Assembly: GCF_057098645.1 (NCBI RefSeq)
Contig: NZ_JBXSPU010000003.1
From: a plasmid
DNA: 64,000 nucleotides
Reading direction: 5' to 3' (one strand)
The position numbers are program-made. Every line of letters begins with the position of its first letter. The stretch's first letter is position 1. Positions 58,601 through 64,000 of the stretch are shown piece by piece.

Positions 58601-61600
58601 CTATCTGATGAGCTGCAAAAAATCAGAATCGGCTTATGACGTTGCACGCCACCGCCTGGCCTCTGACGAGAGCACGCCCGACAATCCTGGTGAGGATGGA
58701 GTTATCATTCTCAGCGAAGAAGACAATACCAGCATGGCGCTTCACAGCGTCACTGAATTGATGCCCGTCGTGTACGAAAGCCTGAGCAAATTACTGCCTT
58801 CACTTGACGAATTGTGCCCCGTGACTGCCTGATAATCCCTGATTGCCACCGGAACAGCCGGTGGCATGGAGAGCTGAAAATGACCAATAAAATCCTGATT
58901 TTGTCCGCTAGCTGCATCAATGAATTTGCGAGTGATGTCCCGCAAAGCGTCTTCTTTTCCATTGATACGTCGCTGGCTAAGCGTATCCGTGAACTGGCGG
59001 CATACGTGAAAGAAAATGATTTGTACGCCGCCGAGTTTTTCTTCTATGACTGCCACTGGTCCGAAACATTGGAAGAGGACATTGAGGTTCTCATGTCGCA
59101 GGCTGCGTTTATTGAAAGTGACAGCAGCGGACAGGAAACGATGCTCCGGGACGTAATGCCCTCCTGCCGCACGGAAACAACTTCCATCCGGGTCATGAAA
59201 GAATCATTTCATCTGACGGCTGTACCCCGTCATTGCGGCGATGACATGATGCTCAATACGCCCCTAATTCCGTTGGCAGAGCTGGAATCAAATGCGACGG
59301 TTTTAATTACCCAGCAGTATTCGTGAGAGCGTGGAGAACATAATATATTTATTGCCGCGTAATTTTATTTGTTCAGTGTTATTTAATTAAATTGGCATGA
59401 TTTCAATTTAACTATTTTTAGCTTCACATATTGCGCTGAAGATATTAAATGGATTTAATAAATATCGCGACAATACAGCGAAAGCCAATTCAGGAAATAA
59501 TATGTATATCGAAATGAAAGAAACATTCCTTGAATTACCCTCAGAAATTCAATTTTCTGAGGCGGCTAACGCTGCCATTCTGACGCAGGATAAATGGGGC
59601 GATGTCTGGCAGACACTGAAGACCGATGCGGATCTGAATTATACTGATGCCGGTGAGCCGGTCAGTCTCGCTTCGCGCGTGACGACGGCAACCAGTGCCA
59701 TTTATCATGCGATTACCGAAGGCTGGACCATGTGCGTCGGCTACAGCGGCGGGAAAGACTCTCACTCGCTACTGCACTTGTTCCTTATGGCCTTGATCCG
59801 TGCAGTACGAAACGGGTCGAACGTCAGCCAGCACCACTTCATTCAGATGTCTGACACCCTGATTGAAAACCCTGAGATGCATCATCAGGCCACGCAGGTT
59901 CTCAGCCAGCTCAGAGCCTTTATTGCCGAACAAGAACTGCCTTTGACCGTCCTTGTGGCCCGCCCGTCCATGACCCAGAGCTGGGTCGGACGCATTCTGA
60001 CCGGGCGTGGACTTCCAACCTGGACAAATTCTTCTACGCGTCAATGCGCTACAGATCTAAAGCGTTCTCCACTGCGCCAGGCCAAAGCCCGTTATCTGAA
60101 AAATGCACCTGCTTCTGTCCGCAACAAAGTGTGCCTGATGCTGGGTTCCCGCGATGATGAGAGCGCCCGTCGGGCAGACAACATCCTAAGAATGGGCGGG
60201 CAGGCGGACAGCGTCTCGCTCACGGAGCACGGCGGCGAACTGTACCCGGTGAAAGAGTGGCGGGCACAGGATATCTGGTCATTTCTGATGGCCTGTGGTT
60301 CTCTGGCGCGATTTCCGCTGCCAAGCTTTTTGCCGGACAACTTCAGCCTCGCCACGCTTTACAAAGACGCGACCGGGGAATGTATCTGGACGCCGGAGAA
60401 ATCCACTGTCCGGTCTTCTGCCTGCGGCGCTCGCTATGGATGCTCGCTATGCTGCGCCGTCGGCATTGATCACTCGATGGAAACCTTACTCCGCACTGAC
60501 CCTGAGAAGTACGGCTACCAGGCTGGTCTCAACCGCCTTCAGCGTTTCCTGACCAAAATTCAGTACGACTGGAGCCTTCGGGATTATATCGGACGCAAAG
60601 TGTTTGAGGGCGGGTATGTGCGTCTTCAGCCCAATGTGTTCTCGTCGTCCCTGACCGAAAGACTGTTCCATATCTGTTGCAGCCTCGATTACGTGGAGGC
60701 TCAGCGGGCCGCAGCGGTGCATGAAAAGTTACTTTCAGGCGAGATCGAAGATACCGCGCATAACCGCCGCATGTCGGAGCCGCAGTTTCGACTGGTGCAG
60801 GAGGCTAACGTGCTGCATATCGACTTTCTCTGGTCACTGCATTGCTTTAACCCGCGCCCATTTCGTGCCATTGAACTTTACCGCCAGGTGTGGGAAGGGG
60901 GGGCACTGGATCTTCTCGACGATGAGCCAGCTATGCAACCAGTACCCCGCACGCCGATGCCAGCACCACGCTGGATGAAGTTGCCGGAAGGCCGTATCGG
61001 GACGTCATTTGACGGGCTGTCCGATCCGTCATCCGAAATAGCCTATTTTGACGGTCGGGAGGATGAGCGAGCTTCCCGCAGTCTGATGAGTAGCGGGGAA
61101 GGCCTGAACATCGTTGCATTCGAAGAAGAGGATGAGCTGACGGTCGATGAAGACACGGCATCCTGGATTATCTGGCATGAATATGACGGATTACGCCAGC
61201 GTGTGTCTGACGGTGAGTTTACCCCTGTGGCGGCGGCACAGTACCTGCTTAGATACGGCGCCGTCCGAATTTCGCGCGGGAAAGGTGCGGTGTACCATCG
61301 ACTCGCTCAACGCGGGCAGGCCTATTCACGTCTTGGCATTAACGACCAGACGTCGCTGCCGTCTCTGCTCGCCAGCCGCCGTTTCAAGATCCTGGCCGAC
61401 AGCGATTATCGCTTGCTCGTAGCCCGCAAACTGCGGGGGCAGCGGCAGAAACTGCGCTTCTGGTGCTGTGTTGCGGCCTGTGTGGCACTGCACACCTACA
61501 ACAAAACCCCTCTGGGGGGGTGGATAACGACGCAACTGGAGACAGAACAACAGCTACATCTGGCCCGGACGGGAGACGAACTGAAGGCAAGGACTCTTGA

Positions 61601-64000
61601 CGCTGTCCTGACCCTCTGTAACCTGCGGATTTCGTCACAGCAACCGGAAGAACGTCTGTATTACCGGGCCGTAAGAAAACGCTTTCTGGAGACATTAGCC
61701 GGGTGTATTTCGCCGGAGCGCGAAGGAACCTTACGGGAAGTCATCTGGGAGCTGCGGATGTTATCCGGCCCTCAGTCTTCGAAAAAGACGGGGTTCCGGC
61801 ATGTGGATGAATGCCGGGAGAGGACGGCGGCGTTGTTAAGGCCTCTGTTGAAACGCATGGTCCGCCTGCTGGCGTGAGCCCACCAGCAAAATCAGACATA
61901 CGTGCAAAAAACGTGAAAATAGCCCCGTTAACGGAAAAAGCGCCGAATGGTGTGTGTTGTAATGAGCGCAGGTGCGGAATTCGTTAAAGGGACTGTTTTG
62001 AAAAGTAACTTTTACATCAGACTAATAATAACCATTTTTTTATAAGTAAGGACTGATATATGACCGATATTAAGGAGAAACAAAATCACTTTAGTAAATT
62101 AAAGTGTATTGCAATTTCCTGGCATTTTAATAAACCTACTGGGAAGGAGCACCTTCTTTTATTTGTTGCCATTGTGGCATGGATTTTCCCAGGACTGGTG
62201 TTTTTCAAACATTCTCTATGGGGCGGACTCCTGTTCTTTTTTTTTGTTGCAGGTAGTTATGCATTCCTGGCTTTTCCTCATTTTACTCATCGGAAGAAAA
62301 TCTGGAAGGAAAGGCTTGACCAGTCGCTGAAAGAGTATCAGCCGCTTGATCTGCAAGCCTGGGCGTATTTTAAGGACCGCGTTAGAGAGGAAGGCATGAC
62401 TTATAAAGCCTGTGAGTCGTGGATGAGTACTGAGGCTAGTGCATTATATAAAAGCCCCAAACAAGAATGGTCATTTCTCGACAGCACTTCGGTTGGAGAA
62501 AATGATAAGTCACAACCCGATTAACAGATTCACTAATTATTGAAAACGAACATTTAAATTTAATCAAAAACCGCCCTGATCACAGGGCTAATTATTCAGA
62601 GGATTGCACTATGCCTATTCAAGAAAAAACCACCGTTTTCGTTTTTAATGCCTGTCATGCTGACAAGGCTGCTGCTGCCAGCGCCAATGCACTGCACAGC
62701 CTGGAAGTTGAATACCCAATGACCCTGAATGATTTGTCATTGCTGTGTGAGTCCGTCGCTAAAGCGTTGGATGTACCCGGCGGAGTGAAATATGAAATTA
62801 CGACTGAGCCGGTAGTGGATGGGGAATACGATTAATTTTGGGGGAGAACACCACTTTATCAGGTAGGGGGGCAGTTGCCCGTTCCCGTAAAACTACCGAC
62901 AGTTTCGGTATGCCTGGCTGATAAAGAGGGATAGGCCTCTCAATGTGTGAACCATGTGTGAAAGGAGACAGCACAGTGAAGACACATGGAATGCTTTTTA
63001 ATGATGAAATGGTCCGGGCAATTCTGGCAGATCAGAAAACACAGACGCGGCGGATTATAAAGCCTCAATATAGTTCGGATGAATGGTCTATAAGGCCTGC
63101 GCAAACACCGCGACATCGCGGGCACACGCATGACTGGTGGCTTCCAACAGGGACCCAGCCATACTCGGCGCTTCGGCCTTGTCCGTACGGCGTAGTTGGC
63201 GACCGCATTACGGTCCGTGAGGCGTTTTCATTGCTCGGGAATGAAGATGCGTGCGCGGTGGACTGGAATGACAACATCGTGATGGACAGGACTGAAGCAG
63301 CCCGCATTTACCGGGCGAGCTGCGAACAGCGGTCGGGGGATTATGGGCTGTGGTCGATCCCTGATGAGGCCGACTGGAAGCCTCGTACCGAAAATATGAA
63401 GTTCGAAGGTGCGTGGACACCTTCAATCCATATGCCTCGCTGGGCCAGCCGTATTGCACTGGAAATTACCGATTTGCGGGTAGAGCGGTTAAATACCATC
63501 AGCGAGGAAGATGCCAAAGCTGAAGGCGCACCAACAGAATGTTGTGTTCTTGGCGATAAGCACTTTCTTGGCTTCCGCAGCCTCTGGAAAAACACGTACG
63601 GCGAGGACAGTTGGCAGGCCAACCCGTGGGTCTGGGTCGTCAACTTTAAGCGTATTACCGGGGAGGTCGTATGAATAATGAGATGAGTTCGCTGGGTACG
63701 CAAAAGGCCGAGGGCCCTTTTGTCCTCCTGACGTTGGTCGGAGAGGGTTTTATCTTCGACGAGCGGCATGAAATCGTCAGAATTAATGGAAGACCAAAGC
63801 AGATTGGGGTAAAGCGGAATTACTTTGAATCTGATCTGGGAGAAGGTAAAGCGAAATACTGGACACTGGATATTAATGAGGCCCATGTATTTCCCACTCT
63901 GGATGCCGCGACCGAACAGCTATGCAAATTAAGCCGACCACACCTGATTAAAATTCGAAAACTAATTCAGGAAAATAAATAAAAAATCGTCTTAATATGC

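Follow-up and report, generated by a model that had tools for sequence, protein, structure and literature searches.

A gene on a tet(X4)-carrying IncHI1 plasmid (R27/pHCM1-like) encodes a PP-loop enzyme with a PAPS-reductase fold that is specifically DndC-like, beyond chance, and its family is nearly confined to conjugative plasmids and related transferable elements (integrative conjugative elements). We tentatively favor reading the protein as a stand-alone nucleic-acid sulfur-transfer enzyme of DndC type that may serve plasmid counter-defense, and a function as a DNA-modification enzyme of mobile elements is plausible.

Domain organization of the protein

The window, the whole 64,000-nucleotide stretch of plasmid DNA that was analyzed, was assigned to IncHI1 on the basis of 100% identity to pYPE10-190k-tetX4 and the MOB-suite replicon type IncHI1A. 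The gene product (WP_039026427.1) is labeled 'phosphoadenosine phosphosulfate reductase family protein' in RefSeq, a name that mislabels it as a sulfate-assimilation enzyme. Scans for sigma-70 promoters and terminators gave nothing above shuffled expectation. The features of the gene are as follows:

59492..59495, + strand: candidate Shine-Dalgarno-like AGGA read from the sequence, 6 nt before the ATG
59502..61877, + strand: complete ORF of 791 aa plus stop codon, start ATG at 59502
59673..60836, + strand: DndC-type catalytic module, aa 58–445 (PAPS-reductase/PP-loop fold, Cys-rich segment, helical segment)
59745..59762, + strand: PP-loop SGGKDS, aa 82–87, ATP pyrophosphatase signature
60045..60047, + strand: conserved Cys182 of an RQC motif, Cys in 69/69 sequences, invariant in alignment A4
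60381..60383, + strand: conserved Cys294 (GEC), Cys in 68/69 sequences, first Cys of a putative Fe-S ligand set
60423..60455, + strand: Cys cluster CGARYGCSLCC, aa 308–318, with C308, C314, and C317 conserved
60837..61397, + strand: family-specific alpha/beta domain, aa 446–632, fold without known match
61398..61874, + strand: basic helical tail, aa 633–791, pI 9.9, from predicted secondary structure and alignment

The sequence and its DndC profile matches confirmed the 791-aa PP-loop ORF with SGGKDS near the N-terminus that a preliminary description had proposed, and the suggested DndC-like PAPS-reductase fold was borne out by the DndC profiles of both PADLOC (E = 2e-37 and 7e-36) and NCBIfam (PRK06850, E = 3e-37; DndC TIGR03183, E = 8e-33). 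These scores fall far under the curated family cut-offs (114 bits vs. 290.4 for TIGR03183 and 128.5 vs. 536 for PRK06850), so the chemistry of the plasmid enzyme may differ. Further matches were to the PADLOC PAPS-plus-MTase profile PDLC03333 (E = 4e-23, aa 63–337, PAPS part only), to Pfam PAPS_reduct (weak; 24.5 bits, E = 3e-5), to the PADLOC BrxP profile (weak; E = 2e-5), and to the NCBIfam TtcA model (E = 0.005, at the PP-loop only). A PDB sequence search matched only the PAPS domain of FAD synthase (E = 1e-3) and returned no solved DndC.

Homology to DndC spans essentially the whole DndC core; the helical segment that ends the module also aligns, and the module is complete. It has in common with DndC/DptC (TIGR03183), which acts as sulfurtransferase in DNA phosphorothioation by DndABCDE, the PAPS-reductase/PP-loop fold, the SGGKDS motif, the RxC cysteine and the same set of conserved cysteines, at an identity of only ~20–23%. 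Residues S82, G84, K85, D86, and S87 are invariant in 69 of 69 aligned sequences, DndC among them, and at least 90% conserved across 90 diverse family members. Cysteines 182, 294, 308, 314, and 317 align with those of true DndC and are 98–100% conserved, Cys294 corresponding to the GECP cysteine. Within CGARYGCSLCC, which had earlier been suggested as a possible metal or Fe-S cluster site, only C308, C314, and C317 are conserved, and they match DndC cysteine columns; C318 is not conserved. The first three together with C294 form a putative [4Fe-4S] ligand set, with the spacing C-x13-C-x5-C-x2-C in the plasmid protein vs. C-x10-C-x6-C-x2-C in DndC.

Because the homology to DndC extends as far as about aa 445, the unassigned C-terminal region covers ~345 aa rather than the 450 aa first described. 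Structure prediction, which the preliminary description had pointed to, gave an AlphaFold2 model of the 791-aa protein with a mean pLDDT of 90.7, in which aa 446–632 form a confidently modeled domain without a structural relative in the PDB or a recognizable DNA-binding fold. This conserved domain of ~190 aa is absent from true DndC, contains a nearly invariant arginine (R604), and occurs only in this family, downstream of its DndC-type module, in 379 clusters. The helical tail is variable and is missing from the 669-aa and ~595-aa family members. Among the 90 diverse family members, PAPS_reduct was the sole recurrent Pfam domain, and neither they nor the 791-aa protein contain a methyltransferase domain.

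Distribution, selection, and genomic neighborhood

The family is present in up to 2,651 of 72,556 plasmid records, and 2,053 of the matching records are conjugative. In complete E. coli genomes, 109 of 110 places of the family lie on plasmids. Within the phage collection, an IncC-type Salmonella record alone matched over the full length; records named as phage cover at most about half of the 791-aa protein, and the tblastn phage matches with E up to 1e-5 include no Vibrio phage record. The gene is a fixed part of very widespread plasmid backbones, with IncHI1, IncHI2, and IncC all carrying the family. Comparison with the IncHI2 orthologue revealed strong purifying selection, with pN/pS at 0.086/0.717 in the catalytic part and 0.158/0.749 in the aa 446–632 domain, and pN reached 0.32 in the tail vs. 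0.09 in the catalytic part. The gene is nevertheless dispensable, since an IS903B insertion has removed its catalytic half in one IncHI2 lineage.

Family genes lie in long co-oriented arrays with ArdA, ArdC, orphan methyltransferases, ParA/KorB, and ssb-bet-exo. ArdA is immediately upstream of the family gene in one context (L015) and 5 kb downstream in another (L008), ArdC and TopB are close by in a third (L022), DNA methyltransferases are near it in several contexts, and in IncC it shares a same-strand array with ssb-bet-exo. On a MOBF plasmid encoding the 669-aa homologue, the array reads ParA-KorB-...-DndB-x-family gene-...-MTase-ArdA-...-LPD29 and points to the oriT side of the T4CP-MobF relaxase operon, which fits a leading-region layout. 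The IncHI1 array points towards the relaxase operon, with the 10-kb mobI-relaxase operon between the array and the presumed oriT, and an inverted-repeat scan of positions 53500–64000 for Frpo/ssi-type hairpins found only one 17-nt pair, none of it Frpo-like.

Neighborhood conservation, raised in the preliminary description, was not found: all-against-all BLAST of nine contexts identified no neighbor conserved across them. The sole recurring neighbor, a 110-aa ORF (57146–57478), was found in one other plasmid type and not beside the IncC or MOBF homologues. Neither in the plasmid region of the window nor in 11 further contexts is any dndA, iscS, dndD, or dndE linked to the gene, and no restriction partner (DndFGH, SspE, PglZ/BrxL) is linked in any context examined. 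In IncHI1 and IncHI2, genes for an HNH endonuclease and a DUF6012 protein follow within a few kb downstream; they are not conserved outside IncHI. There are no sulfur-assimilation genes near the gene, and a 393-aa upstream ORF (RefSeq 'flavin reductase') was rejected as a redox partner for want of Pfam or NCBIfam support. The two ParB-like and two methyltransferase genes described earlier as lying elsewhere were found, each over 20 kb away from it:

9912–10919, − strand: ParB
35066–35890, − strand: Dam methylase
36250–37407, + strand: ParB-HTH protein
37593–39347, + strand: DUF4942 protein

On the plasmid as a whole, the ParB-HTH proteins are encoded over 10 kb and over 20 kb away. Neither here nor in the 11 other contexts does a ParB-like gene adjoin the family gene, and the flanking ORFs have no ParB match in NCBIfam or PHROGs.

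Comparison with known systems

DndC carries the SGGKDS motif and a [4Fe-4S] center, acts as an ATP pyrophosphatase, and has a function known only in complex with IscS, DndD, and DndE (PMC6435447). The plasmid protein, unlike DndC, has no linked dndA, dndD, or dndE, has its own ~190-aa conserved domain and helical tail in addition, and resides on conjugative plasmids and related elements, whereas DndC is found in chromosomal defense islands. SspD and BrxP, of the Ssp and type 4 BREX phosphorothioation systems, belong to the same superfamily and presumably share the same adenylation and sulfur-transfer chemistry on DNA. Their partners are DUF4007/SspB and the SspC/BrxC ATPases, and they have other extra domains (PMC12839542); the plasmid protein has neither these partners nor these domains.

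A further related case is Vibrio phage P5a p0018, a fusion of a PAPS domain with a Dam methyltransferase (Piel et al., bioRxiv 10.1101/2021.05.05.442762). Swapping a two-gene phage segment that includes p0018 into a recipient phage conferred escape from Dnd, which the authors credited at least partly to the PAPS domain (bioRxiv 10.1101/2021.05.05.442762). Both p0018 and the plasmid protein have PAPS-reductase-superfamily domains on mobile elements, without Dnd partners and among anti-restriction functions; the plasmid protein, unlike p0018, is plasmid-borne, has no methyltransferase domain, and has its own C-terminal module.

The preliminary description had likened the protein to the IbrA/IbrB type, represented in E. 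coli by YbdN/YbdM, in which a PAPS reductase with DUF3440 is encoded by a gene overlapping a ParB-like gene. This likeness did not hold: YbdN shares only the PP-loop core (aa 77–268, 26% identity; ~65 columns covered by hhalign) and does not align to the Cys-rich segment or the C-terminal module, the 791-aa protein has no match to DUF3440, and no ParB-like gene adjoins its gene. The sole echo of the idea is the DndB gene two ORFs upstream of the family gene, in one MOBF plasmid lineage only, and the ParB-HTH 'DNA-binding proteins' of the window's plasmid have no similarity to this DndB. TtuA, NcsA, and TtcA, which are [4Fe-4S]-dependent PP-loop thiolases of RNA, are distant relatives that differ in Cys motif and domain organization, and the genomic context of the plasmid protein is DNA-centered.

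Proposed function and alternatives

By analogy with DndC, aa 58–445 would act as an Fe-S-dependent PP-loop ATP pyrophosphatase. Its target on the nucleic acid, an oxygen of a phosphate or of a carbonyl group, would be adenylated and then exchanged for sulfur; this sulfur would come via the cluster or via a persulfide, with the host cysteine desulfurase IscS as the most likely source. The aa 446–632 domain and the basic tail might provide substrate (DNA) recognition or oligomerization, where classical Dnd has separate DndD and DndE. The enzyme would then be an accessory establishment or counter-defense factor that marks the plasmid's own DNA and so lets it escape restriction in a new host, the most obvious target of such escape being phosphorothioate-sensing Dnd-type restriction. 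DndC homology, the fixed domain architecture, specificity to mobile elements, the company of ArdA, ArdC, and methyltransferases, the leading-region layout on the MOBF plasmid, the p0018 precedent, and purifying selection count for this sulfur-transfer reading. Against it count the lack of linked DndC partners, the scores below cut-off, the dispensability seen in one IncHI2 lineage, and a middle domain that is acidic (pI 5.2) and lacks a recognizable DNA-binding fold, as well as, in IncHI1, the 10-kb gap between the array and the presumed oriT and the absence of an Frpo-like hairpin. A more specific form, to which we give a rather low probability, is a single-polypeptide DNA sulfur-modification system in which the module and its private domain, needing only host IscS, would install phosphorothioate or thio-base marks; such marks on plasmid DNA, perhaps on the single strand that is transferred, made without DndD or DndE, are likewise a minority prospect.

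Unlikely is a replacement or booster DndC, inactive alone, that would plug into the recipient's IscS-DndD-DndE machinery; it is similarly improbable that in Dnd-positive hosts the incoming plasmid would thereby be phosphorothioated at the host's motif fast enough to escape DndFGH. The nearest outgroup is indeed DndC (P0098–P0105, some bearing that name, E = 1e-10 to 6e-19), no catalytic residue has been lost, a gene for the DndB regulator is nearby in one plasmid lineage, and, for a Dnd-positive host, a phage PAPS-domain gene has been implicated in an anti-Dnd phenotype (bioRxiv 10.1101/2021.05.05.442762). However, at ~20–23% identity to DndC, docking on the DndD/E of many different hosts is unlikely, true DndC lacks the conserved extra domain, and Dnd clusters occur sporadically across genomes (PMC8569181) whereas this gene is fixed in very widespread backbones. 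We regard as equally doubtful a substrate other than DNA, be it host tRNA or rRNA (by thiolation, in the manner of TtuA, NcsA, and TtcA), a nucleotide signal, or a protein (in the manner of the QueC-like Cap9), and assign no greater chance to the corollary that the new host would be reprogrammed or its signaling defense blunted: the DndC profiles are closest, more than 30 orders of magnitude ahead of tRNA enzymes, and the neighbors (ArdA, ArdC, methyltransferases, TopB, DnaB, SSB) are DNA-centered.

Less probable still is a defense or competition gene, which would harm or mark incoming phages or rival plasmids or represent the orphan modification half of what was once a Dnd-like restriction system. 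Plasmids do carry defense systems, the protein matches the defense profiles DndC and, at 2e-5, BrxP, and the HNH endonuclease and DUF6012 genes are only a few kb away in IncHI1 and IncHI2; but those two genes are not kept outside IncHI plasmids, restriction partners are unlinked in every context, and the recurring neighbors are anti-restriction rather than defense genes. The function that the database name implies, a sulfate-assimilation PAPS reductase serving as metabolic cargo, is highly improbable given the weak Pfam match, the absence of any CysH model among NCBIfam matches at E up to 1, a size three times that of CysH (~245 aa), the lack of an ECGLH-type C-terminal motif in the translation, and the absence of sulfur-assimilation genes nearby.

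IncHI1, IncHI2, and IncC plasmids rank among the main carriers of tet(X4), mcr, and carbapenemase genes, and the enzyme, which is large and strongly conserved, is present in all of these backbones. Were plasmid DNA found to be modified, the enzyme would represent a novel type of plasmid counter-defense and the first DndC-type enzyme to work without DndD and DndE, would make DNA sulfur-insertion chemistry testable in a one-protein system, and could partly account for the broad host range of IncHI/IncC plasmids. If the single-polypeptide form is true, IncHI, IncC, and many other conjugative elements would possess an unrecognized chemical anti-restriction coat. With another substrate, the protein would still be a conserved putative Fe-S enzyme with a domain lacking a solved structural relative.

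Full-text literature searches turned up no experimental study of the family, and its function is not discussed in the papers found. A 'PAPS reductase' family, which may not be the same one, is listed among leading-region families of unknown function (Samuel et al., 2024), and a preprint names Aca-regulated PAPS reductases as anti-defense candidates.

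The protein and its DndC-type module

The gene lies exactly where the preliminary description had placed it (59502-61877, + strand, 791 aa), with an AGGA 6 nt 5′ of the ATG. It is a genuine gene, and thousands of records list it, but under a misleading name; RefSeq calls the product "phosphoadenosine phosphosulfate reductase family protein". The protein is most aptly regarded as a stand-alone enzyme of the DndC type, which has a C-terminal domain of its own and is typical of conjugative elements. No functional study of this DndC-like plasmid family was found in the literature. 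The family is of interest because the foremost multidrug-resistance plasmids carry it in their backbones, and because it allows the chemistry of DNA sulfur insertion to be approached with a single protein.

Pfam returned PAPS_reduct alone and weakly (aa 78-263, E 3e-5). At the level of sequence profiles, those built on DndC fit the protein much better: two from PADLOC (E 2e-37 and 7e-36, the second extending to aa 446), NCBIfam PRK06850 (E 3e-37, aa 58-444; 128 bits against a curated cut-off of 536) and DndC TIGR03183 (E 8e-33, aa 66-380; 114 bits against a cut-off of 290). With these strong matches and an intact ATP-binding loop (SGGKDS, aa 82-87), the PAPS-reductase/PP-loop fold proposed earlier stands. 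In an alignment of the query and 68 homologues (69 sequences, proteins named DndC among them), S82, G84, K85, D86 and S87 of the PP-loop and C182, C314 and C317 were invariant, and C294 and C308 were Cys in all but one sequence (68/69); the conserved PP-loop and Cys columns also held across 90 more diverse family members. The motif CGARYGCSLCC, previously singled out as a possible metal or Fe-S site, is present at aa 308-318, with C308, C314 and C317 conserved and its last residue, C318, not. Based on this conservation and on DndC mutagenesis, which reportedly supports a cluster-ligand role, the conserved Cys columns are putative Fe-S ligands. DndC itself has the SGGKDS motif, and its [4Fe-4S] centre is needed for ATP pyrophosphatase activity; the protein acts in complex with IscS, DndD and DndE (PMC6435447). 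The query shares the Cys set of DndC, but scores far below the curated DndC cut-offs and carries an extra, fixed domain.

Because DndC homology reaches aa ∼445, where it stops, about 345 aa are without assignment, rather than the 450 aa initially reported. The mid domain (aa 446-632) is conserved throughout the family, and the tail (aa 633-791) consists of long helices, is variable, and is missing in the 669-aa and ∼595-aa members. A profile of aa 440-652 matched 379 clusters among 1.84 billion representative proteins; in the full-length matches listed, the mid domain followed an N-terminal part of ∼350-520 aa, and the shorter matches resembled fragments. The mid domain is acidic (pI 5.2), and no known DNA-binding fold was recognised in it.

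Replicon, distribution and selection

Over nearly its whole length the window aligns collinearly, at 99.5-100% identity, with pYPE10-190k-tetX4, an E. coli plasmid of 190 kb; it departs from that plasmid in an additional IS21-family element and at a gap of ∼90 bp. Given this identity, the IncHI1A replicon of pYPE10-190k-tetX4 (which also has a MOBH relaxase and MPF_F), and the 99% identity of S. Typhi UniProt Q935R1 to the query in the mid domain, the window is assigned by sequence to an R27/pHCM1-type IncHI1 plasmid. The G+C content of the gene is 56.5% (63% at third codon positions), above the 46.2% of the window and ∼47% of the immediate flanks, which suggests that it was acquired from a donor of higher G+C.

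In a tblastn search, 2,651 of 72,556 plasmid records matched the query, a figure that sets a maximum for the full-length family, since the weakest matches span the N-terminal catalytic module only; 2,053 were predicted to be conjugative, and query coverage was ≥80% in 1,755. In addition to the IncHI1 form found here, the family includes an IncHI2 orthologue (794 aa, 75% identity), an IncC form (817 aa, 48% identity), a form on MOBF plasmids (669 aa), and further forms on Vibrio, Aeromonas, Providencia, Pseudomonas and Burkholderia elements. The allele found here was present in 107 of 5,426 complete E. coli genomes, and 109 of its 110 places there were plasmid-borne. In a phage collection no true phage gave a full-length match, the sole one being a Salmonella record with the IncC form. 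The family is restricted to conjugative plasmids and related elements.

A comparison of the IncHI1 orthologue with that of IncHI2 showed saturation at synonymous sites and little non-synonymous change (pN/pS 0.086/0.717 for the catalytic part, 0.158/0.749 for the mid domain and 0.321/0.887 for the tail). The gene is under purifying selection. It is dispensable despite the low non-synonymous change, as seen in one IncHI2 lineage in which an IS903B insertion deletes the catalytic half of the orthologue:

IncHI2 plasmid pSPRC-Echo1 (L018), 3472-6452: orthologue with an IS903B copy in place of its 5′ part

The remnant there (470 aa, without the catalytic domain) is annotated as hypothetical.

Neighbours in the window and in other elements

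The gene belongs to a co-oriented, + strand block, which runs from ∼54.6 kb to 15 kb past the window end, includes RelE, HNH, DUF6012, DUF957, DUF3085, hok, a ParB-HTH protein and DUF905, and ends convergently with the 3′ end of the mobI-MobH relaxase-T4CP operon. The following lie near the gene:

55466-56647, + strand: 393-aa ORF, RefSeq "flavin reductase" (the record uses a shorter start)
57146-57478, + strand: 110-aa ORF without family assignment, the only neighbour of the gene recurring elsewhere
62943-63674, + strand: 243-aa ORF two genes 3′ of the gene, phrog_874 (E 1.6e-76), of unknown function

The name "flavin reductase" appears unsupported, since Pfam, NCBIfam and PHROG all gave zero matches. 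NCBIfam likewise had no match to the 243-aa ORF, whose N-terminus is ASCH-like by eye only.

Eleven further contexts of homologues were inspected, and the ORFs of nine were compared by all-against-all BLAST, which identified no conserved neighbour except the 110-aa ORF, common to one other plasmid type; a Citrobacter MOBH plasmid (L006) has a homologue of this ORF at 7519-7884 (60% identity), immediately 5′ of the homologue of the gene. dndA, dndD and dndE were absent from every context inspected. What recurs is the kind of neighbours, not a specific partner: ArdA directly 5′ of the homologue (L015) or 5 kb 3′ (L008), ArdC and topoisomerase III (L022), DNA methyltransferases (IncC, IncHI2, L008 and L020), ParA/KorB or ParB, DnaB, a ThiF/E2 cassette and, in IncC, ssb-bet-exo in the same co-oriented array. 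In a MOBF plasmid, NZ_CP150022, one strand carries ParA-KorB ... DndB-x-homologue ... N6-MTase ... ArdA ... PrlF/YhaV ... DUF4942 ... LPD29, and the array ends beside the T4CP-MobF operon, on its oriT-proximal side, a leading-region layout. Its DndB gene is the sole Dnd-related linkage among all contexts, with classical dndC, dndD and dndE not nearby:

MOBF plasmid NZ_CP150022 (L016), 14470-18010: DndB-family gene, two ORFs 5′ of the 669-aa homologue

Leading regions carry anti-defence genes, methyltransferases and SSBs on the transferred strand, and a family of 73 members named "phosphoadenosine phosphosulfate reductase", which may be the present one, appears in a supplementary table under "other unknown leading families" (Samuel et al., Nature 2024). 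In the IncHI1 plasmid, ∼10 kb of relaxase operon lie between the array and the presumed oriT. No statement on IncHI1 transfer polarity was found in the literature, and an inverted-repeat scan of 53500-64000 detected no single-strand-promoter-type hairpin near the gene.

An IbrA/IbrB-type system had been considered from the sequence. The IbrA-type E. coli K-12 protein YbdN (PAPS reductase plus DUF3440), whose gene overlaps the ParB-like ybdM, aligned with aa 77-268 of the query only (26% identity; ∼65 columns in profile comparison) and, unlike the query, has no counterpart of the Cys-rich segment and C-terminal module. No ParB-like gene adjoins the gene, and the two "DNA-binding proteins" with a ParB HTH domain are >10 kb and >20 kb away. 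The IbrA/IbrB idea is therefore set aside, and the query is classed, on these comparisons, as DndC-type. The two ParB-HTH proteins were also considered as DndB relatives and rejected for lack of resemblance.

Possible function and further features of the window

With a PP-loop fold, the DndC Cys set, a fixed extra domain and anti-restriction neighbours established, a function can be proposed by inference. By analogy with the proposal for DndC, the enzyme would adenylate a nucleic-acid oxygen and swap in sulfur via an Fe-S cluster or persulfide. The host's IscS would supply the sulfur, the C-terminal extension could stand in for DndD/E in engaging the substrate, and the purpose may be to protect plasmid DNA from restriction by marking it. 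Among experiments, the best precedent is a two-gene Vibrio phage segment that, moved into a sensitive phage, conferred escape from host Dnd; one of the two genes, p0018, encodes a PAPS domain fused to a Dam methylase, and the authors credited the escape at least partly to the PAPS domain (bioRxiv 10.1101/2021.05.05.442762). A 2026 preprint names Aca-regulated PAPS reductases as anti-defence candidates. The PADLOC profile of PAPS-MTase fusions matched the query at 4e-23.

Against sulfur marking, the family lies well beyond the curated limits of DndC, and the mid domain is acidic and without a known DNA-binding fold. DndC is not known to act without partners, which also weighs against it. Rather than acting by itself, the enzyme could depend on the host's Dnd machinery; its substrate could be RNA, protein or a small molecule instead of DNA; its role could lie in defence; or, much less probably, it could have true PAPS reductase activity.

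Other features of the window include the following:

5602-7730: IS21-family element, missing from the reference plasmid, which is identical otherwise
5702-6874: IstA of this element
6871-7671: IstB of this element
12433-13679: tandem-repeat array of 52-bp units, 23.6 copies
14481-14889: related array of 54-bp units, 7.6 copies

In the reference plasmid, the two flanks of the IS21-family element show a 6-bp overlap, consistent with a target-site duplication, and the element splits a gene annotated there as a metallophosphoesterase. Located between the partition genes and the transfer region (trhC side), both repeat arrays are candidate iteron or partition-site arrays. At 36250-39347, >20 kb from the gene, a ParB-HTH protein (385 aa) is followed by a DUF4942 protein (584 aa) and adjoins a divergent Dam methylase (35066-35890); together these may form a ParB-like/methylase module as is common in plasmid establishment regions.
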